A stretch of 44,755 nucleotides of DNA, taken from IMG/VR virus record IMGVR_UViG_3300020215_000077, positions 1 to 44,755 of that record; one strand, given 5' to 3'. A program made the position numbers and the translations under genes. The notes under the pieces are model-generated. The model worked only from the letters and a program-made list of their open reading frames with translations, was not told the origin of the DNA and ran no database searches. Each line of letters starts with the position of its first letter. Within the stretch, counting starts at the first letter, position 1. Source of the DNA: a virus. Below are positions 8,461-44,755 of the stretch, piece by piece.

Positions 8461-9009
8461 ATGTCAGGCGGTTGGGTAGCCCGCTTGCCCTTCCCCCTGA
8501 TCCGCTCCATCGCCGAGGCCTACCACGTAGACCACCGGCTGGTGGCAGCGATCTGCCAGGTGGAGAGCTCGGGCAATCCGAAGGCGATTCGCAGAGAGCC
8601 CCACTGGCAGTACTGGCACAAGCCCGAGGAGTGGGCGCGAAAGTTCGTCGATCCCAAGGCGGCAGGACTCGTCGCGACGCGTCCCAAGGAGGAGCAGCTG
8701 GCGTGGGCCGCCGCCCAGCTCGAGGCGGAGAAGGAAAGGCAGCGTCACAGTTACGGCTTAATGCAGGTCATGGGAGCCGTTTGTCGCGAGTTGGGCTACG
8801 CGCACGCGACGATGGACCTGCTGTTCGAGCCCGCCATCGGCATCGCTTACGGCTGCAAGGTTCTCCAGAAGCTCTCCAAGTACACGAGCGTCGCCGACAA
8901 GGCCGCCGCCTACAACGCGGGCCTGCCGCGAAAAGACCCCAATACCGGTGAGTACAGAAACCAGAAGTACGTGGGCAAGGTGCTCGCCCTTCTGGCTGAT
9001 TTCAAGTGA
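8461..9009 (+). CDS. Endolysin, soluble lytic transglycosylase (SLT/GH23-like)
   Basis: Motifs QVESSGNPKA, GLMQVMG and AYNAG. Strong SD AGGAGG precedes the ATG. Confidence 0.85.
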   Translation: MSGGWVARLPFPLIRSIAEAYHVDHRLVAAICQVESSGNPKAIRREPHWQYWHKPEEWARKFVDPKAAGLVATRPKEEQLAWAAAQLEAEKERQRHSYGLMQVMGAVCRELGYAHATMDLLFEPAIGIAYGCKVLQKLSKYTSVADKAAAYNAGLPRKDPNTGEYRNQKYVGKVLALLADFK

Positions 9010-9026
9010 CAGCAGGGAGGCACAAA

Positions 9027-9995
9027 ATGGTTCGGATTTTTCTCTTGGGGGCGGCGTTCATGGCCGCCTCACCCGCTTTCGCCGCGGGCGCGGTCTTAGG
9101 CCGCCCCGCCCGCCACATCCACTTCGAGCAGCTGCCGCCCGAGGCTACCCTGATCGGCGGCGAGGAAGTCTCGCGCGAGCAGTTTCCTGGCGTCTTCTAC
9201 ACGAGCCAGGGAAGCTCACGCTGCACCGGCACCGCCGTTGCCTCGAAGGTCATCGCATCCGCCGCCCACTGCATGGCAAACGGCGGATCTCTCACCCTCA
9301 GCTACGCCGGCAAGACCTATCGTGGTACGTGCAAGCACCACCCGGACTACCGGAGGAACTCCACCGCCGACTGGGCGCTCTGCACGCTCACCGAGCCTCT
9401 TCCCGACCCGGTCGCCGAGTCTCTGAACCAGGCGGCCGAGCGGGTCAAGGTTGGCGCGCAGCTTAGGCTCATGGGCTACGGCTGCGTCCGCCAAGGCGGC
9501 GGCGGGGGCAACGACGGGAAACTTCGCACGGGCTTTGCGCCAGTGACGCGCCTGCCGCGTGACGCCCAGAAGGACTACGACATCATCACCAAGGGCTCGG
9601 TGGCGCTCTGCTTCGGCGACTCGGGCGGCCCGGCGTTCGTGGAAGAGAGCGGGCGCCGCTGGGTGACTTCGGTCAACAGCCGGGGCGACATCCGGACCAC
9701 GAGCTACCTGCCGTCCTGGTCGTCCTCGGCGGCGCAGGCCTTCCTCTCGACCTTCCCGGTCCCGGTCTGCGGCGTTCACGAGGGTGCCGAGGGCTGCCGC
9801 GGCCAGGCCACGCCCCCGCCGCTTCCGGCCGAGTGCCGGGATCTCGACGGGCACGTCAAGGTCTGGTCGGAGTGCTTGGCCAAGGAACCGAAGCCTGAGC
9901 GCGTCAAGTGCGACGACGCCGTTGACGCAATGCAGGCCTGTTACGAAGCGCGCTATGGCGAGGCGTTCGGCGTCATCCGCCGGCCGCAACGATAG
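9027..9995 (+). CDS. Secreted trypsin-like (S1 family) serine protease with a Cys-rich C-terminal extension
   Basis: Signal peptide MVRIFLLGAAFMAASPAFAAG. IGGEEV, SAAHC (His), DWALC (Asp) and GDSGGP (Ser) give a complete triad. SD GGGAGG precedes ATG 9027. Confidence 0.85.
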   Translation: MVRIFLLGAAFMAASPAFAAGAVLGRPARHIHFEQLPPEATLIGGEEVSREQFPGVFYTSQGSSRCTGTAVASKVIASAAHCMANGGSLTLSYAGKTYRGTCKHHPDYRRNSTADWALCTLTEPLPDPVAESLNQAAERVKVGAQLRLMGYGCVRQGGGGGNDGKLRTGFAPVTRLPRDAQKDYDIITKGSVALCFGDSGGPAFVEESGRRWVTSVNSRGDIRTTSYLPSWSSSAAQAFLSTFPVPVCGVHEGAEGCRGQATPPPLPAECRDLDGHVKVWSECLAKEPKPERVKCDDAVDAMQACYEARYGEAFGVIRRPQR

Positions 9996-10826: not shown

Positions 10827-11567
10827 ATGGCTCTCAGGACCTGGCTCGTCATCCCCGACCTTCACGTGCCGTTCCAGGACGCGCGGTTCATCCAGCTGGT
10901 CTCGAAGATCATCACCCTGTTGAAGCCGGACGGCGTCGTGCAGCTCGGAGACGCCATAGATTGGTGGCAGCTCTCGAAGTACGCGAAGGACCCCACGCGT
11001 ACGCGCGACGCCTTTGACGATCTGGCGGAGTATGCCGGGCTCCTGGACGAGTGGGAGGCGCTGCTCCCCGAGGGCTGCGAGTGGCGGCAGCTGCAGGGAA
11101 ACCACGAGCACCGGCTAGAGCGCTACGTCGCCGAGAAGGCGCCTGACCTTGCCAAGATGATCCGGTCCATGACCGAGATGCTGCGCTTTCCCGAGAGGAA
11201 CAAGCGCGGCGGGCTCTGGCGGTGGTTCGAGATGGGCAACTGGCGCGCCTGCAAGCTCGGCGACGTCGTCCTTCACCACGGCTTCTACTTCTCCGAGCAC
11301 ACCGCCCACCGGATCCTCCAGAAGTACAAATGCAAGATGGTCACCGGCCACACGCACCGCGTGCAGCTGGTGTCCGACGGCGACCTCTGGGCGGCGACCT
11401 TGGGCCACGGCTCCAAGGAGGACGAGACCTCGCACGCCCCGGTCAGGACCGGCTGGCAGCAGGCCTTGGGCGTCCTCTCGATCGATCCTCAAGGCCGCGG
11501 CCACCTCGAGGTGATCCTTGTGGACCGCGGCCAGTGCATCTTCAGGGGGCAGCATGTCCAGGCGTAG
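10827..11567 (+). CDS. Calcineurin-like metallophosphoesterase (lambda NinI-type phosphatase family)
   Basis: Ordered motifs IPDLHVP, LGDAID, GNHE and GHTH. Confidence 0.8.
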   Translation: MALRTWLVIPDLHVPFQDARFIQLVSKIITLLKPDGVVQLGDAIDWWQLSKYAKDPTRTRDAFDDLAEYAGLLDEWEALLPEGCEWRQLQGNHEHRLERYVAEKAPDLAKMIRSMTEMLRFPERNKRGGLWRWFEMGNWRACKLGDVVLHHGFYFSEHTAHRILQKYKCKMVTGHTHRVQLVSDGDLWAATLGHGSKEDETSHAPVRTGWQQALGVLSIDPQGRGHLEVILVDRGQCIFRGQHVQA

Positions 11568-23510: not shown

Positions 23511-24074
23511 GTGGACCCGAAGCTGCGCTTTCTCGAGATGCTCAACACGGTGGCCGCGCTAGCCAACGTCTCGCTCACAAAGACCCTGGTCGGAGTCTAC
23601 GTGGAGGAGCTCGAACCCGTCGGCCTCGAGCGCGCCACCGCCGCCCTCCGCCGCTACGCCACGAAGACGACCCCGCGCACCGGACTGCCGACCGTCGAGC
23701 AGATCAAGGCGGACCTGGGTGCCGCCGAGCCCTCGGACGAGTCCAAGGCGCGCGACGCCGTAAGCCGCATCATCCAGGCGATCTCGGTCCACGGTTACAA
23801 CTGGCCCGAGAGAGCCCAGGCCGCCGTCGGCACGCTCGGCTGGGAACTCGTGCGCCGCGCCGGGGGCTGGGAGGCGATCTGCCAGGAATACACCTACGCG
23901 AAGGAGCACGCAGTGCTCGCCGCCCAGTGGCGCGAACTCGCCAAATCGCTGCTTGAAAGAGCCCGCACCGGCCAGCTGGACACCGCGCCGTCGCTCTACC
24001 CGGCCGAGACGGCAGGGGTCGTCTCGAAGGCCCTCACCCTGGCTCTAAACGGCGGGAAGGGCCGTGAGCCATGA
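23511..24074 (+). CDS. Hypothetical protein (replication region)
   Basis: GTG 23511 lies just after the upstream stop; 187 aa. Confidence 0.55.
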   Translation: MDPKLRFLEMLNTVAALANVSLTKTLVGVYVEELEPVGLERATAALRRYATKTTPRTGLPTVEQIKADLGAAEPSDESKARDAVSRIIQAISVHGYNWPERAQAAVGTLGWELVRRAGGWEAICQEYTYAKEHAVLAAQWRELAKSLLERARTGQLDTAPSLYPAETAGVVSKALTLALNGGKGREP

Positions 24075-24303
24075 GCGTCGGTGGGCGCCTTGCTATCTCT
24101 GCCAGGGAACCGGGACGGTCCTGGCGCTCAAGCGCGACTACCTTCTCGGCTCGGCATTTGCGTTCGCCTGCTCGTGCGATGAGGGCCGGAAGTGGCCGGC
24201 ATATCCCTCGTGGCGGCAGGAGCTCAGAGAGCAGTTCGTGCCCCGCTGGGAGCATCTCATGGCCGAGCGCCGCATGAAGGAGGACCCGACGTGCGTACCC
24301 TGA
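24064..24303 (+). CDS. Small DnaJ-type zinc-finger (CxxCxGxG) protein
   Basis: CYLCQGTG motif plus additional Cys (ACSCDEG). Confidence 0.5.
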   Translation: MSHERRWAPCYLCQGTGTVLALKRDYLLGSAFAFACSCDEGRKWPAYPSWRQELREQFVPRWEHLMAERRMKEDPTCVP

Positions 24304-24440
24304 TCCGCTGGCTCCGCATCAAGCTTGCCGTCCGCCGCCGAAGGCGCCTCGAGGTCCGCATCAACCCGACCCGCAGGCTTCCCCTGATCCGGGCGAGCGA
24401 TCTCTACCGGGCGCAGCGAATCGAGGAGGGCGCGCCGTGA
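24291..24440 (+). CDS. Small basic protein (49 aa)
   Basis: GTG 24291 follows GAAGGAGGA. Arg-rich. Confidence 0.4.
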   Translation: MRTLIRWLRIKLAVRRRRRLEVRINPTRRLPLIRASDLYRAQRIEEGAP

Positions 24441-24766
24441 CCAGCAGCCTGAATAGCTTCGACCGCGAGTTGATCAACCTCGAGTCCGCGCTGTGGGACA
24501 AGGAAGCCGAGATCAGGCTGGCCGAGGACATCATCGGCCAGCTTACGGACATCCAGTCCCTCCTAAGCGAAGAGCAGCGACCGACCGTCGGCCCGCACGT
24601 CGCCAAGGCAATCGAGAGCGCCGAGAAGGACCTAGCCGAGATCGAGAAGCAGCTGGAGGAGGCGACCGACGAGTACAACGCGGCTCTCCGCCGGCGCGGC
24701 TTCCAGTCGGAGGACCAGTGGCACATGGAGCTGGAAAGGCGGTTGAGCGTCGTCGAGCTTGATTGA
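24437..24766 (+). CDS. Coiled-coil protein
   Basis: GTGA overlap with the upstream gene; 109 aa, acidic and helical. Confidence 0.55.
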   Translation: MTSSLNSFDRELINLESALWDKEAEIRLAEDIIGQLTDIQSLLSEEQRPTVGPHVAKAIESAEKDLAEIEKQLEEATDEYNAALRRRGFQSEDQWHMELERRLSVVELD

Positions 24767-24813
24767 ATCGCGGCGGCAGTGGCGCCGTTCGCGTAACACC
24801 AGAGGGAGATCCC

Positions 24814-25428
24814 ATGAAAACCGTCAACGTCAAGATTCGGGGCGTGAGCCCGCTGCTGCTCAACAAGTTCAAGGACCAGGACGAGATCCCGGCGAAGGTC
24901 ACGAAGGGCAAGAAGGACTACGGCACGCCGCGCGAGCAGGCCGAGAAGACCGCTTACGCCGACGAGGCGACCGGCCGGCTGTGGGTGCCGTGGTCGTGGA
25001 TCTCCGGATGCATTCGCTCAGTGGCGTCGGACTATAAGATCAACGGCTCCCGCAAGAGCGTAAAGTCGGTGTCGAGCGGCGCCGTGCGCCTCACCGACGA
25101 GCGCCTCTTCTTCGATGAGGCCTTCACGATTGCCGACATCGAGGTGGACTCGCGGCCGGCCGTTGTGCAGCGGGCCCGCATCATGCGCCACCGCGCACGG
25201 CTTGAGAACTGGACGCTGTCGTTCGCAGTCGAGGTGGAGGAGGACATCCTCCCGCTCGATCAAGTCCACGAGATCCTCAATGACGCAGGCAAGCGCGCTG
25301 GCCTCGGAGACTACCGCGTCGAGAAGGGTGGGCCGTTTGGCCGCTTCCAGGTCGTCGCGTGGAGCGTGATGAGCGAAGGCCAGGATGCGAAGGTCGAGAA
25401 GTTTGAGCCGAAGAGGAAGCGGGCTTGA
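24814..25428 (+). CDS. Hypothetical protein with Cas7/Csm3-like RAMP motif order (tentative)
   Basis: Ordered motifs resemble Csm3/Cmr4: an N-terminal beta strand VNVKIRGVSPLL, then RLWVPWSWISGCIRS (compare IPGSSxKGxxRS), VRLTDERLFF, RHRARLENWTLSFAVEV, and a Gly-rich C-terminal loop GLGDYRVEKGGPFGRFQV. SD GAGGGAG precedes ATG 24814. Confidence 0.35.
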   Translation: MKTVNVKIRGVSPLLLNKFKDQDEIPAKVTKGKKDYGTPREQAEKTAYADEATGRLWVPWSWISGCIRSVASDYKINGSRKSVKSVSSGAVRLTDERLFFDEAFTIADIEVDSRPAVVQRARIMRHRARLENWTLSFAVEVEEDILPLDQVHEILNDAGKRAGLGDYRVEKGGPFGRFQVVAWSVMSEGQDAKVEKFEPKRKRA

Positions 25429-26125
25429 TGGAGAGGTCCGGCAAGGTTGGGCTTGGCAGGGCATCGCTTGTCGCAGCGGGGCTTGGCAAAGCTCGGCTCG
25501 GTGCGGGCGGGACGGCGAGGCAAGGCAGGGTTTGGTTTCGTATCGTGTGGCTCTGCATGGCAAGACGCGGAAGGCTGGTCGTGGTCCGGCTCGGCACGTT
25601 CAGGCACGGCTTGAATTGGCCTGGCTAGGTTGGGCGCGGACGGATTGGCAAGGCATCGCAGGGCTGGGTCTGGCATGGTCCGGTCCGGCATGGCGAGGAG
25701 CGGATGGAGAGGGATGGCATGGTCAGGCTGGGCTGGGCTCGGTGAGGTTAGTCCTGTCGAGGCGAGGTCTGGGTGGTTCGGCAAAGGAAGGCATCGCGCG
25801 CCACGGTTAGGCAGTGCGTCGCGTGGCTCGGTTGAGTCGGGCTTGGCAAGCCATGGCTCGGTTCTGCGGAGTTCGGCAAGGCTCGGTTCGGATGGTTAGG
25901 CATGGCAGGGTTTCGCGCAGCGGCGCAGGGCGGGGCGCGGTAAGGAAGGCGCGGATGGAATCGGAAGGCCCTGCTTGGCGGGCTTGGGCTCGGCGCGGCA
26001 GGGCATGGCATTGCGTTGTACGGCACGCCTCGGCTGGGCACGGCGTGGAAGCCCCGGATCGGCACGGTACGGCCGGGTTTGGCAAGGCGCACTTTGGCGT
26101 GGCTCGGTAGGGCACGGACGGCGAG
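25429..26125 (+). repeat. ~700-bp non-coding, G-skewed, degenerate short-repeat tract (GGNNN pentamer phasing; TGGCA(N)GG / GGCTCGG words)
   Basis: About 29 GGCA occurrences by hand count. Runs such as ggctc ggctc ggtgc gggcg and ggtcc ggtcc ggcat ggcga ggagc ggatg. G outnumbers C about 2:1 in sampled lines. Overlapping ORFs appear in all six frames, none with a consistent coding frame. Confidence 0.85.
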
Positions 26126-26136
26126 GATCAACAAAC

Positions 26137-26400
26137 ATGACGACCGCAAGTGACAGCGCCTTCCCCTCTGGCGTCCTCATGTCGGAGTCCTGCCCCTACC
26201 AGCGGGGGCTTTCGCGGCGCGACTACTTCGCAGCTCTGGCGATGCAAGGTCTGGCCTCTGACGTCTCGGGTGCCATGGCCAAGCTCGCGGCCAGAAACGG
26301 CGTGCCGCTTACCAAGGTGATCGCGGGTGTGGCGCGAGAGCTGGCCGATGCGCTCGAGGCCGAGCTCAAGCTGCCCACCCAAAAAGGTGAGGGGTCATGA
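26137..26400 (+). CDS. Hypothetical protein (RRDYFAALAMQGL motif common in small phage proteins)
   Basis: ATG 26137 lies at the end of the repeat tract; 87 aa. Confidence 0.55.
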   Translation: MTTASDSAFPSGVLMSESCPYQRGLSRRDYFAALAMQGLASDVSGAMAKLAARNGVPLTKVIAGVARELADALEAELKLPTQKGEGS

Positions 26401-26609
26401 CGATCATCAACCCCGCGCTCACCGCGCCCGCCTGGGCTCGCTACCGCGGCGAGAAGGTGCGGGTGTTCTGGGCGACGAAGAGCGACGAGCACGTCACCTG
26501 CGAGTTCATGACGGGGCCGCACGTCGGCAAGTGGACGTCGGCGGTCAGGAAGGAGCTTGAGCCGTGGGTGGAGGAGTACGAGCCCGAGGACCTGGAGGAG
26601 GGGCGGTGA
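26397..26609 (+). CDS. Hypothetical protein
   Basis: ATGA overlap with the upstream gene; 70 aa. Confidence 0.55.
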   Translation: MTIINPALTAPAWARYRGEKVRVFWATKSDEHVTCEFMTGPHVGKWTSAVRKELEPWVEEYEPEDLEEGR

Positions 26610-26700
26610 GCGGCGTGGCACGGCTAGGCGAGGTCTCGCGAGGCACCGTCTGGTTTGGTTAGGCCTGGTCTGGTGTGGTTTGGACGGCACGGAGGGGCAG
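26610..26700 (+). repeat. Second, short G/T-rich tract of the same word family
   Basis: GGCACGG twice, GGTTTGG twice and GGTTAGGC (also present in the main tract at 25805 and 25893). Confidence 0.75.
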
Positions 26701-26796
26701 ATGGATTGGACGTCGTACGAAACGATCACCTTGTTCTACTTGGCGACCTTCTGCCTCGGCATGGCCACGGGCCTCTGGGCGGCACGTCGATTCTGA
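26701..26796 (+). CDS. Small membrane protein (31 aa)
   Basis: ATG follows GGAGGGG. Single TM, ITLFYLATFCLGMATGLWAA. Confidence 0.4.
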   Translation: MDWTSYETITLFYLATFCLGMATGLWAARRF

Positions 26797-26817
26797 CAAG
26801 CAATCGCGGAGGCTGGT

Positions 26818-27003
26818 ATGCGCAGCTGTAACGGCCAGGGTTTGGCGCTGGACACCCAGCGAGCGATCGACAGGTACGTTTCCGAGGTCGTGGAGGCCAT
26901 CGAATGGGCCATCCACAAGAAGTACATTGAGCAGACGATCCCTGGGTACTTCCCGTGGTTAGAAAAGCAGCAGAGGGAGACGCGCCGTGAGACGAGGCAC
27001 TAG
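26818..27003 (+). CDS. Hypothetical protein
   Basis: 61-aa ORF with GGAGG SD. Confidence 0.5.
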   Translation: MRSCNGQGLALDTQRAIDRYVSEVVEAIEWAIHKKYIEQTIPGYFPWLEKQQRETRRETRH

Positions 27004-27223
27004 CCGGACGCAGGCGGCCGTGGCAGAACAGGCGGGTTCTTTGACAACCAGCGAGCCCCGCTTGCGCTCGGTGAGGGAGGTGGCCGACCTTCTGCGCGTC
27101 TCGGCGAAGACCGTCTACGACTGGACGGCCGACAGGAAGCTCCCCTCCTATAAGCTGGGCAAGCGGGTCTTGATCGACATGGCGGACGTGGAGCGGCTAC
27201 TTGCGCGAGCCAGGACCTTCTAG
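26987..27223 (+). CDS. xis: Excisionase-family (MerR-like HTH_17) DNA-binding protein
   Basis: VREVADLLRVSAKTVYDWTADRKLPSYKLGKRVLI lies directly upstream of the integrase gene. The start is uncertain. Confidence 0.7.
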   Translation: MRRGTSRTQAAVAEQAGSLTTSEPRLRSVREVADLLRVSAKTVYDWTADRKLPSYKLGKRVLIDMADVERLLARARTF

Positions 27224-27231
27224 GAGGTCCC

Positions 27232-28365
27232 ATGCCTATCGAACGCGGAGCCCGCAAGGCCGGCAAGGCCTACCGGGCGGTCTTCAAGGTGCGTCGCACC
27301 CGCTTTCAGTCGCCCTGGTTTCGCTCTGAAGAGGAGGCCAAGGACTGGGAGGCGAGAAAGAGGACCGAGATCCAAGACGGCCAGGTGGTGACCGGCCGCA
27401 AGATCCTGGTCCAAGACTTCACCAAGCTCTGGCTCGAGAAACACGCCTACGCCCGCAAGACCTTCGGCGCTGCCGTGCGCGACGAGTCGGTGACCAGGAA
27501 GTACATCGACCCCCGCTTTGGCTCTCGCCAACTGCGAAGCCTCACCTTCCAGGACCTGGACTTCTTCTTTTCCGAGCTCGCCCGCTCCGGGACGGTGAAG
27601 CCCAAGACGGTGAACAACTGCATCGGCACCGTGAAGAAGATGCTCTCTGATGCCGTGCGCTGGGGGCACCTCTCCTCCTCGCCGGCCGCTGCCCTCAAGC
27701 GCTTTGAGGTGCCAGACGAGGAGGTCACCTACCTCTACCGAGACGAGGTGGCCAAGCTCCTGGCCTACGCGGCTGTCCATCGGCCGCACGAGCACGAGAT
27801 CATCCTCTTCGCCCTGAACACAGGCTGCCGCCTTGGTGAGTGCGTGGCGCTTTCCTGGGGCAAGGTGGACTTGGGACGGCGCACGGCGCTCATCTCGGCC
27901 ACCTGGGCGGACAAGGAAAGACGGGTGGTCGAGCGCACCAAGGGAAAGAGAATCCGTCAGGTGCCCCTCAACTCGGAGGCGCTCTCGCTCTTTCGCCGCA
28001 TGCATCTTCTGGGGCGAAAGGCCGAGGACCTGGTCTTCGCCCGGGTGTCCTACTCGGCGCTCACCAACCACGGCGGCTTTGCCCGGCTACTTCGGCGCTC
28101 GGGCCTCAAGGACGCCTTGGACCGCGGCGCCACCTTCCACTCGCTTCGCCACACATTCGCCTCTGAGTTCATGAGGGCCGGCGGCGGCTTGTGGGACCTG
28201 CAAAAGCTTCTGGGCCACGCGACGATCACCCAGACAGAGAAGTACGCGCACTTTGCCCCTGGCCACACGGCGGGGCTTACCGATCGCGTCGGCTTCGCGA
28301 CACCGCAGGGCGAGAGAGTGCCGGTCCCCACGGCGGTCCCCAAAACGGCGATTTCAGCTTCGTAA
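27232..28365 (+). CDS. int: Tyrosine integrase
   Basis: Catalytic boxes TGCRLGE (Arg), HSLRHTFAS (HxxR) and LLGHATITQTEKYAH (His/Tyr). AGGAGG SD. Confidence 0.9.
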   Translation: MPIERGARKAGKAYRAVFKVRRTRFQSPWFRSEEEAKDWEARKRTEIQDGQVVTGRKILVQDFTKLWLEKHAYARKTFGAAVRDESVTRKYIDPRFGSRQLRSLTFQDLDFFFSELARSGTVKPKTVNNCIGTVKKMLSDAVRWGHLSSSPAAALKRFEVPDEEVTYLYRDEVAKLLAYAAVHRPHEHEIILFALNTGCRLGECVALSWGKVDLGRRTALISATWADKERRVVERTKGKRIRQVPLNSEALSLFRRMHLLGRKAEDLVFARVSYSALTNHGGFARLLRRSGLKDALDRGATFHSLRHTFASEFMRAGGGLWDLQKLLGHATITQTEKYAHFAPGHTAGLTDRVGFATPQGERVPVPTAVPKTAISAS

Positions 28366-43649: not shown

Positions 43650-44755
43650 CGGCGACCCTATGGGATGCCAATAACTGGGACAACGAGCTCACCTGGGACG
43701 ATGGCACGGCCACGATCCTGGAGATGATCAAGCGGCCCCACGTCCGCGTCTTCCGCCGCGCCTACATTAAGCGCCGGCTCCTGGCCACCGGGCTCTTCGA
43801 GACCGACTGGTACGAGATCACCCGAGACGTCAAACGCTGGGGGTCGATCAACAGCAACATCGACGTCGAGCGGGTGGGAAAGCTCGACTTCAATGGCCTG
43901 CAGCTCGTTGTCTCTAACATCGACGGTAGCTACAACCCGGACGACAACGAGGACTCGCTGTGGTCGGGATACGCCAACCAGCAACGATCCCTGGTCAAGA
44001 TCGAGTGCGGCTTCTACAACCAGTACCGGAGCGTGGACGGGGTCTGGCGGACCGACGAGGTGCCCGAGGATCCCACCGTCTTCGTGGGTATCATCTCGGG
44101 CAACATCGACGTCTCGGACGCCAACGAGGTCACGCTCGAGATCCAGCCGGTCACCCAGGTCTTCCGCGACTTCCCAGCGCATCTCGTCACCGGCTTCACG
44201 AGCACGGGGATCACGGCCAGCCAGTACATCCAGCTCCTCAGGGACCTGACCTCGGGTGCTGGCACCTACGTCTTCCGGCCGTTCTTTGGCAACGACTCGG
44301 CCTACTTCGAGCTCACCTCGACGAGCCAGGTCTATGCTGGCCTGAATACCAGTACCGCAGCCGACTTCTACCAGATGACCGTCTGGGACGTGGTGGAGCG
44401 TCTGGCGCAGGCCGAGAACTTCGTGGCCTACATCACACCCACCGGGAAGTTCCGGTGGGTGCCGAAGACCGTCTCCGCCTCGACGCAGTATAAGTTCTTC
44501 GGCTTGGGGTTCAGCCCGGATCGTGAGTACGGACACACGCTGAAGCGGATCTACCGTTACGGGAAGAAGCTCACGAGCTTCTACTCGCGCGTCGCCGTGA
44601 AGTACGACAAGGCCGACACCAGCACGTCGTTCGTTAGCACCGCCCTGGCCTTTGCCATCGACGGCACCAACACCGCCTGGAACCTGGGTTACCGGACCTT
44701 CTCGGTCGAGAACTTCTGGATCCCGAACAGCGCCACGGCGGCGTCCGTCTGCGGG
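43646..44755 (+). CDS. Tail hub/Tal-like protein, N-terminal part (continues at 2..394 across the junction)
   Basis: GTG 43646 overlaps the upstream stop (GTGA). Hand translation (VTATLWDANNWDNELTWDDG...) is open to the window end. The ORF is absent from the track because it has no stop inside the window. Confidence 0.8.
   Translation, partial: MTATLWDANNWDNELTWDDGTATILEMIKRPHVRVFRRAYIKRRLLATGLFETDWYEITRDVKRWGSINSNIDVERVGKLDFNGLQLVVSNIDGSYNPDDNEDSLWSGYANQQRSLVKIECGFYNQYRSVDGVWRTDEVPEDPTVFVGIISGNIDVSDANEVTLEIQPVTQVFRDFPAHLVTGFTSTGITASQYIQLLRDLTSGAGTYVFRPFFGNDSAYFELTSTSQVYAGLNTSTAADFYQMTVWDVVERLAQAENFVAYITPTGKFRWVPKTVSASTQYKFFGLGFSPDREYGHTLKRIYRYGKKLTSFYSRVAVKYDKADTSTSFVSTALAFAIDGTNTAWNLGYRTFSVENFWIPNSATAASVCG
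44638..44755. repeat. Terminal direct repeat, right copy (identical to 1..118)
   Basis: Exact 118-nt match to the window start. Confidence 0.95.

Follow-up and report, generated by a model that had tools for sequence, protein, structure and literature searches.

Introduction

VIPR (Viral Interference Programmable Repeat) systems, described only in 2026 as a form of RNA-guided DNA recognition older and simpler than CRISPR, are mostly phage-borne and combine a ~20 kDa protein, Vipr, with vrRNAs and usually with an accessory vap gene (named in 10.64898/2026.04.26.720920, 10.64898/2026.04.26.720927). Here we analyze one locus of the IMG/VR virus record IMGVR_UViG_3300020215_000077 (positions 1 to 44755, the whole stretch of DNA analyzed, hereafter the window), in which an open reading frame (ORF) of 204 amino acids, the vipr gene, is followed by a tract of pentameric repeats.

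In the published systems, a vrRNA consists of 9–16 YNNGG repeats with a conserved GGY and a hypervariable NN, and a YNNCG/YNNNG variant consensus was also reported (10.64898/2026.04.26.720920, 10.64898/2026.04.26.720927). Vipr protomers polymerize on the vrRNA, one per pentamer (10.64898/2026.04.26.720927). The exposed NN bases pair with double-stranded DNA, every third target base being skipped, and transcription is repressed, with binding on either strand within a gene having this effect (10.64898/2026.04.26.720920, 10.64898/2026.04.26.720927). Natural targets belong to competing satellites and prophages; the skipped base is in most cases the wobble base of a codon, and self-targets were not found (10.64898/2026.04.26.720920, 10.64898/2026.04.26.720927). 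Seven types differ in their accessory genes, some being predicted to destroy their targets; vap, of which there are six families, typically lies beside vipr (10.64898/2026.04.26.720920, 10.64898/2026.04.26.720927). The array styles depicted in 10.64898/2026.04.26.720920 include staggered arrays, in which guides overlap by one nucleotide, hammerhead-interspersed arrays and single guides.

Our analysis indicates that the locus is very probably a VIPR system carried by a complete temperate tailed phage of ~44.6 kb. It adds a member to the family published in 2026 and does not represent a new kind of system. Specific to it are a tail-less, vap-less, staggered array of about ten guides with a conserved GGAYG junction, a Vipr 26% identical to the studied one and a codon-phased predicted target. 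The central features are as follows.

24814–25428, + strand: vipr gene, 204 amino acids, a minimal RAMP protein (ATG at 24814, TGA at 25426–25428)
25429–26121, + strand: main vrRNA array, nine YNNGG blocks with 4-nt junctions, staggered and without tails

Family and fold of the protein

A PDB sequence search with the 204-residue protein returned one meaningful match, 36pp ('SUSP1 Vipr protein'; E = 7e-7 with the single sequence), and the same entry was the sole PDB match of a profile built from 40 homologs (E = 4.2e-11, residues 1–182 versus 1–188). Comparison with the gene product of Escherichia phage SUSP1 by hhalign gave 97.5% probability (E = 8.6e-12). With tblastn, ~26% identity was found over residues 1–190 to SUSP1 and other Felixounavirus-type phages, the matches including SUSP1, SUSP2 and many related Escherichia, Shigella, Salmonella and Citrobacter phages. 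Both the ORF (E = 1.9e-19) and SUSP1 Vipr (E = 1.4e-96) match phrog_4652, a PHROGs family of unknown function. Scans of the ORF against Pfam, NCBIfam and PADLOC gave zero matches even at E ≤ 10, Cas7/RAMP profiles included, and membership in Cas7/Csm3/Cmr4 was rejected on this basis. By sequence, the protein belongs to a separate Vipr lineage and not to Csm3/Cmr4/Cas7.

The initial annotation had called this ORF a solitary Cas7/Csm3-like protein from five RAMP-like motifs. All five are present in the order given: VNVKIRGVSPLL (residues 4–15), RLWVPWSWISGCIRS (55–69), VRLTDERLFF (91–100), RHRARLENWTLSFAVEV (125–141) and GLGDYRVEKGGPFGRFQV (163–180). In an AlphaFold2 model built on the 40-homolog alignment (predicted local distance difference test score (pLDDT) 81.9, predicted template modeling score (pTM) 0.77), they correspond to strand 1 of the RRM core, a strand plus helix 1, the central strand pair, the thumb hairpin with the next strand and a glycine-rich loop, respectively. 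The model consists of the RRM core with a thumb at about residues 112–130 and a G-loop at 163–176, and a second domain is absent. In a Foldseek search of solved structures, the top 50 PDB matches were all Csm3, Cmr4 or type VII Cas7 (E = 3.6e-6 to 2e-4, probability 1.00, template modeling (TM) score 0.43–0.54); this library ends on 2026-04-08 and gave zero Vipr entries. The top matches among predicted viral structures were an uncharacterised viral protein (TM 0.62) and a siphovirus 'Cas system-associated RAMP superfamily protein'. The Cas7-type call thus stands for the fold and fails for the family: the model points to a RAMP fold, no Cas profile matches and the sequence indicates a Vipr. The gene is also solitary, as had been proposed, with no CRISPR-like direct repeats anywhere in the window and no Cas families among the window ORFs scanned against Pfam or PHROGs.

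In SUSP1 Vipr, the thumb together with the G-loop sequesters GGY; H17 and D177 contact G1, R138 and W178 contact G2 and R179 contacts Y3 of the repeat, and the R138A and D177A substitutions abolish silencing (10.64898/2026.04.26.720920, 10.64898/2026.04.26.720927). The hhalign alignment pairs these residues as listed.

SUSP1 H17: N17 here
SUSP1 R138: R127 here, the thumb arginine
SUSP1 D177: D166 here
SUSP1 W178: Y167 here (F in most clade members)
SUSP1 R179: R168 here

All five positions are invariant or nearly so across the 40-homolog alignment. R127 and D166, the counterparts of the two residues whose alanine mutants lose silencing, are invariant, as is the G-loop GLGDYR...GGPFGRF, and the H to N and W to Y/F replacements are conservative changes.

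The structural matches suggest a different reading, in which the ORF is a stray or degenerate Cas7 (Csm3/Cmr4) that acts with, poisons or decoys a host class 1 effector and the adjoining tract is unrelated. Phages are known to carry anti-CRISPR proteins, and Csm3, Cmr4 and type VII Cas7 are the best fold matches in the Foldseek library. We nevertheless consider this highly improbable: the Cas7/RAMP profiles of all three collections failed to match, sequence homology is to Vipr only, the GGY-binding residues are conserved, a Vipr-type pentamer array follows the gene here and in its relatives, and one guide has a codon-phased DNA target. The decoy role floated in the initial annotation finds no support. 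The RNA partner of the protein is encoded beside its gene, and a rival prophage contains a DNA target for one of the guides.

Anatomy of the guide array

The array begins directly after the vipr stop codon, and its first perfect YNNGG unit lies at 25437. The window contains 13 runs of 4–8 perfect YNNGG units, all on the + strand and all within 25437–26117 or 26614–26683; on the minus strand of the 44.7-kb window, no run of at least four perfect units was found. The 697-nt tract alone holds 11 runs of at least four perfect units, whereas 500 dinucleotide-preserving shuffles averaged 0.026 such runs and never had more than 1; this substantiates the repetitive tract that the initial annotation had placed right after the gene. 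The strongest period-5 G windows of the whole sequence all fall inside the two tracts. The guanine–cytosine (GC) skew of the window also peaks here (+0.23 at 25001–26000) and is fully explained by the G-rich + strand array.

Among 120 in-phase units, 87 are perfect YNNGG, and many of the imperfect ones are YNNCG or YNNNG. Position 1 is a pyrimidine in 98% of units, and positions 4 and 5 are G in 82% and 92%. Entropy at the NN positions 2 and 3 is 1.92 and 1.96 bits, which is near the maximum, compared with 0.5–1.0 bits at Y, G and G. A dynamic-programming (Viterbi) parse tiles all of 25437–26117 with 5-nt units and 4-nt junctions and zero single-base skips, each junction moving the phase by −1. 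The junctions are ACGG (three between blocks and one closing the array at 26118–26121), ATGG (three), AAGG (two), GTGG and AAGC. Read in the GGYNN register, each block closes with a GGAYG-type unit, which shares its final G with the start of the following block; GGAYGG is found at 25510, 25638, 25702, 25712, 25890, 25953, 26116 and 26682. The parse yields nine blocks in the main array, and a tenth block lies apart from it, all on the + strand.

g1, 25437–25511, +: 15 units; target not found
g2, 25516–25570, +: 11 units
g3, 25575–25639, +: 13 units
g4, 25644–25703, +: 12 units
g5, 25708–25772, +: 13 units; predicted to target P4/CP4-57-type integrase genes at their 3′ end
g6, 25777–25891, +: 23 units in one phase, possibly two guides; target not found
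g7, 25896–25954, +: 10 units; an AAGG junction and a single extra unit follow
g8, 25959–26048, +: 18 units
g9, 26053–26117, +: 13 units, followed by the closing junction ACGG at 26118–26121
g10, 26614–26687, +: separate from the main array; 14 units (to 26683), each either YNNGG or YNNCG; GGACGG closes this block as well

With the high confidence that we attach to the VIPR locus as a whole, we read 25429–26121 as the vrRNA array of Vipr and count about ten guides in total. The blocks are joined without further elements: conserved tails or spacers between them were not found, and the repeat families detected mirror the pentamer skeleton only. An Rfam search of 24000–27500 gave matches at noise level only, hammerhead ribozymes were not found and a ribozyme-interspersed array was rejected for that reason. 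Predicted folding of the tract is no stronger than that of shuffled sequence (z = −0.29), and a promoter and terminator scan of 24000–27300 returned nothing usable.

A G-rich periodic tract might instead be a regulatory region prone to form G-quadruplexes, an origin or iteron region, or low-complexity coding DNA, with the integrase match described below a coincidence. GG every five bases could give weak two-tetrad quadruplexes, mechanical ORFs cross the tract, nine of the ten blocks lack a target and 33 of the 120 units are imperfect. Against this, period 5 with phase resets is incompatible with coding, and the signature is strand-specific, with its first-position pyrimidine and its near-maximal NN entropy. 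The array is, moreover, syntenic with vipr in unrelated phage backgrounds in which nothing else is conserved, and the 25/26 match of g5, in codon phase and to one conserved motif with 25 variants, compares with a rough expectation of ~5e-4. We judge this alternative very unlikely and retain the guide array as our interpretation.

Related loci and cassette behavior

Homologs of the protein were sought and related loci drawn from viral, genome and metagenome collections. A word-index search placed 312 of 500 scored candidates at E ≤ 0.001, mostly on phage-sized metagenome contigs, and a profile search run exhaustively returned 4,538 cluster representatives with E ≤ 1e-3, of which 1,251 had E ≤ 1e-10; almost all are 175–230 amino acids long. 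In six related loci (L001, L002, L003, L005, L006 and L012), arrays lie directly downstream of vipr on the same strand. The 4-nt AYGN junctions, each shifting the phase by −1, recur in four of these (L001, L002, L003 and L005), and a GGAYGC motif was seen by eye in the L012 array. As a positive control, the same script recovered the upstream guide of SUSP1 and its three downstream guides, the latter 68–73 nt apart with tails between them.

The GG-AYGN junctions recur across unrelated phage backgrounds with different fourth bases or pyrimidines (ACGA, ACGG and ACGC in L002; ATGC in L003 and L005). The retention of this junction, always with a −1 shift, suggests that it functions as a boundary or as a signal for processing. 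Like the window with its two guide tracts, L002 has a divided array, in three segments 400–580 nt apart. In L005, the blocks at 624–668 and 732–786 share the run TAAGG-T[AC]CGG-TAATG-TGCGG-TGAGG with one substitution, which suggests guide duplication within the array.

Between the window and three relatives, vipr is 71–76% identical in DNA over ~500 nt and the arrays do not align, a pattern of array turnover beside a retained gene. Apart from vipr, no gene within 6 kb is common to any two of the twelve loci compared; no nuclease or helicase gene next to vipr is conserved among them, and a SUSP1 vap1 homolog was not found in the window. Because vipr is shared while the arrays do not align and the neighbors differ, vipr and its array behave in the clade of the window as a self-contained cassette without a recognizable vap gene.

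A predicted codon-phased target for guide g5

We searched for targets under the published rule, in which GGY is replaced by one wildcard. The NN series of g5 is GA AT AT CA TG TG TC GA TA CT GA GA CT. Its 8-unit seed (25718–25757) matched 48 IMG/VR loci, compared with 6 for each of two other 16-base seeds, and the full 13-unit guide matches 39 of the 48 at 21 or more of 26 NN positions (80% or better), across loci of 43 to 67% G+C. The sites comprise 25 distinct variants, all of which encode MQWWSDYL[D/E] in frame: the NN bases occupy codon positions 1–2 and the skip falls on position 3. They lie 18–31 codons before the stop (61 in one variant) of open frames that are mostly ~290–540 codons long. 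The few seed matches outside the integrase gene score 17–21 and carry in-frame stop codons. The targeted gene encodes a tyrosine integrase with Arm-DNA-bind_3, Phage_int_M and Phage_integrase domains, and the site covers the sequence coding for E-I-M-Q-W-W-S-D-Y-L-D-D, a conserved C-terminal motif in integrases of the P4/CP4-57 type.

The best match, at 25/26, reads EIMQWWSDYLDD; the sequence of this Achromobacter site is CGAGATAATGCAGTGGTGGTCGGACTACCTGGACGATCA. The integrase concerned is annotated as Achromobacter sp. in NCBI and is present in assemblies GCA_046535435.1 and GCA_001637105.1, and a 24/26 match lies in an integrase annotated as Achromobacter denitrificans on metagenome contigs. 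Over these 140 kb of sequence, 200 unit-shuffled g5 guides peak at 20/26, and scaling from the counts of other 16-base seeds gives the rough estimate of ~5e-4 IMG/VR sites at 25/26 or better for a random guide. The target integrase sits at a prophage border, ~140 bp from a tRNA-Val, and the prophage carries RecT, RdgC, RusA and lysis genes; the g5 site itself is ~75 bp before the integrase stop codon and ~215 bp from the tRNA-Val. The integrase of the window is of a different kind and lacks a g5 site. The window has a G+C content of 64%, resembling that of the target locus L057 (0.64).

A 49-kb provirus contig, IMGVR_UViG_2744054808_000004, contains two separate g5-seed sites (L057 and L075) and appears to hold two integrases of the targeted family.

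These features point to interference with rival integrative elements in the same host as the likely role of g5.

Searches with the remaining guides

All target searches in the sequence collections used exact seeds of 16–20 specified bases. Exact seeds of g9 and g4 gave 0 matches in IMG/VR, and those of g4 and g10 gave 0 matches against metagenome contigs. The g10 seed had 2 IMG/VR matches and the g8 and g3 seeds 6 each; all were set aside when extension stayed at chance level. The g2 seed matched 27 AT-rich viral contigs (25–49% G+C, several of ~400 kb), which we judged to be chance because only 4 positions were free to vary. In seven of these contigs (L016, L025, L033, L034, L037, L040 and L041; 33–36% G+C), g2 matches 21 of 22 NN positions in a conserved gene. 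Four of these seven contigs are ~410 kb long; with 18 positions forced by the seed and a very different G+C content, the match is treated as chance, which is unproven.

Self-targets in the window reached at best 60–75% of NN positions, equal to the shuffled null, and one guide was scored one base out of register. Cross-targets between the related loci were at chance level, and the remaining guides found nothing above the shuffled null in the flanks of the Achromobacter prophage.

Mode of action and weight of the evidence

By analogy with the published family, the guides would be transcribed and processed, assemble into a filament with Vipr, bind DNA and silence it. In this scheme, vipr and the adjoining array would be transcribed together, and one Vipr protomer would occupy each pentamer, holding GGY and exposing NN. 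The filament would then read double-stranded DNA through NN pairing with every third target base skipped, and once bound it would block transcription of the target. The initial annotation had proposed that the protein could assemble on a phage RNA, and the published Vipr family does so on vrRNA (10.64898/2026.04.26.720927); the same behavior may be expected here.

The locus could also be a genuine VIPR system that works in another mode, such as recruitment of a nuclease from host or phage, action on RNA, control of the phage's own lysogeny switch or a block of excision or integration at the nearby attachment (att) site. The g5 site at the extreme 3′ end of the integrase gene would be odd for promoter-proximal silencing, and the locus adjoins the phage's own excisionase and integrase; a vap gene and a tail were not found, and published types vary in their accessory genes, some of them predicted to destroy targets. 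This reading is unlikely in our view, given that no nuclease or helicase gene is conserved beside vipr in the twelve loci, that no self-target was found in the phage genome and that the published system represses from either strand within a gene. We therefore keep to a VIPR system that silences rival elements.

Several observations weigh against this interpretation. Of the in-phase units, 33/120 depart from YNNGG. At 23 units, g6 is longer than the 9–16 repeats reported for type II, and the block boundaries were drawn from phase shifts, not RNA ends. The exact-seed searches identified a target for only one of about ten guides. SUSP1 K33, a helical-bundle residue that makes a backbone contact, belongs to a stretch of 9 residues missing here and in the rest of the clade. 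No 3′ tail, pseudoknot or vap gene was found at the locus; the published description has vap 'typically' beside vipr, so membership in VIPR is still allowed. Finally, Achromobacter is suggested as the host by the best target match and, weakly, by the similar G+C content, and by nothing else.

A broader idea is that g5 is tuned to the peptide motif MQWWSDYLD and not to one rival, giving broad interference with the integration or excision of rivals, and that in tail-less arrays GGAYG perhaps resets the filament register or directs cleavage. We hold this tentatively and regard it as possible but doubtful. If true, and because the skipped base falls on the wobble position, g5 alone could recognize integrase genes in many prophages, satellites and islands that integrate at tRNA genes and are otherwise unrelated.

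The locus offers a clean natural example of VIPR from an uncultivated, high-G+C temperate phage and yields a testable protein–guide–target triple for a Vipr 26% identical to the studied one. Its g5 target hints at the phage host, and the locus supports the view that a wobble-skipping code lets one guide span a whole gene family of rivals.

Genomic context of the locus

The ends of the window overlap by an exact 118 bp (1–118 = 44638–44755), and the window is therefore a complete phage genome, circular or terminally redundant, of ~44.6 kb. The structural genes (terminase, portal, protease, tail tube, tape measure and baseplate) form a module that runs across the ends. A second module, for replication and recombination, encodes a Gam-like protein, RecT and a replication initiator, and excisionase and integrase genes lie a short way downstream of the VIPR locus. 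The portal protein reaches only 27% identity with that of any isolated phage, and a close cultured relative was not found; the terminase relatives are all on metagenome contigs. In assigning a host from phage genes, the sole cellular-genome match, at 64% identity, was to an uncultured Bacteriovoracaceae metagenome-assembled genome.

The following small ORFs flank vipr and the guide tracts.

24437–24766, + strand: ORF of 109 amino acids without a significant family match
26137–26609, + strand: two small ORFs between the guide tracts, of 87 amino acids (phrog_2201, of unknown function) and 70 amino acids

None of the three is kept beside vipr in the relatives, and their membership in the system is unsupported. 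Two genes upstream of vipr, a 79-residue ORF (24064–24303, +) is Cys-rich (CYLC...CSC), has no family match and is possibly a zinc finger. Farther away, a 638-residue ORF (773–2689, +) combines a CTP_transf_3 cytidylyltransferase domain with a glycosyltransferase of family 2 in one fusion protein and may be a surface-glycan modification gene. ORFs for a trypsin-like serine protease (9006–9995, +) and a calcineurin-like metallophosphoesterase (10827–11567, +) lie between the tail and early regions.

Comparison with known systems

The closest studied system is the type II VIPR of SUSP1. The two Vipr proteins are homologous over their full length and keep the thumb arginine and the D-aromatic-R of the G-loop. 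Both loci are phage-borne and have same-strand YNNGG guides with hypervariable NN and no self-targets, and both have a natural target in a rival mobile element with the one-nucleotide skip on the wobble position, which is a prediction for the locus described here. They differ in that the protein here is 26% identical and lacks the 9-residue segment that includes K33. In SUSP1, vap1 lies between vipr and the array, whereas here the array follows vipr directly; tails of ~40 nt with a pseudoknot are replaced here by 4-nt junctions, and the four vrRNAs of SUSP1 compare with about ten guides. The locus thus shows neither the ~40-nt 3′ tail nor the intervening vap1 of type II, the SUSP1/P. fulva clade.

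The likeness to staggered VIPR arrays lies in guides that overlap by one nucleotide, here through the shared G of GGAYG. It rests on the description in the legend of fig. S18 of 10.64898/2026.04.26.720920, which states neither the type nor the junction sequence of such arrays.

With Cas7 (Csm3, Cmr4 and type VII), the protein shares an RRM-based RAMP fold with a thumb and a glycine-rich loop (Foldseek E ~4e-6, TM ~0.5), and the two families have in common one protomer per fixed RNA step and a thumb that flips bases out. Unlike Cas7 loci, this one has no Cas7 profile match, no CRISPR array, no Cas5, Cas6, Cas10 or Cas11 partner and no second domain in its protein. The RNA step of Cas7 is 6 nt with one base flipped, whereas that of Vipr is 5 nt with three bases sequestered, and the guide information of Vipr is non-contiguous.

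CRISPR arrays of phages and satellites serve conflicts between mobile elements, as in Vibrio phage ICP1 against PLE. The locus resembles ICP1-type arrays in that a phage encodes programmable guides directed against a mobile element that competes with it in one host. ICP1-type systems comprise a full CRISPR-Cas with spacer acquisition and cleavage, whereas the locus consists of a single 204-residue protein with its guides and has no adaptation genes. By homology with the published VIPR family, the expected outcome here, in place of cleavage, would be binding and repression.

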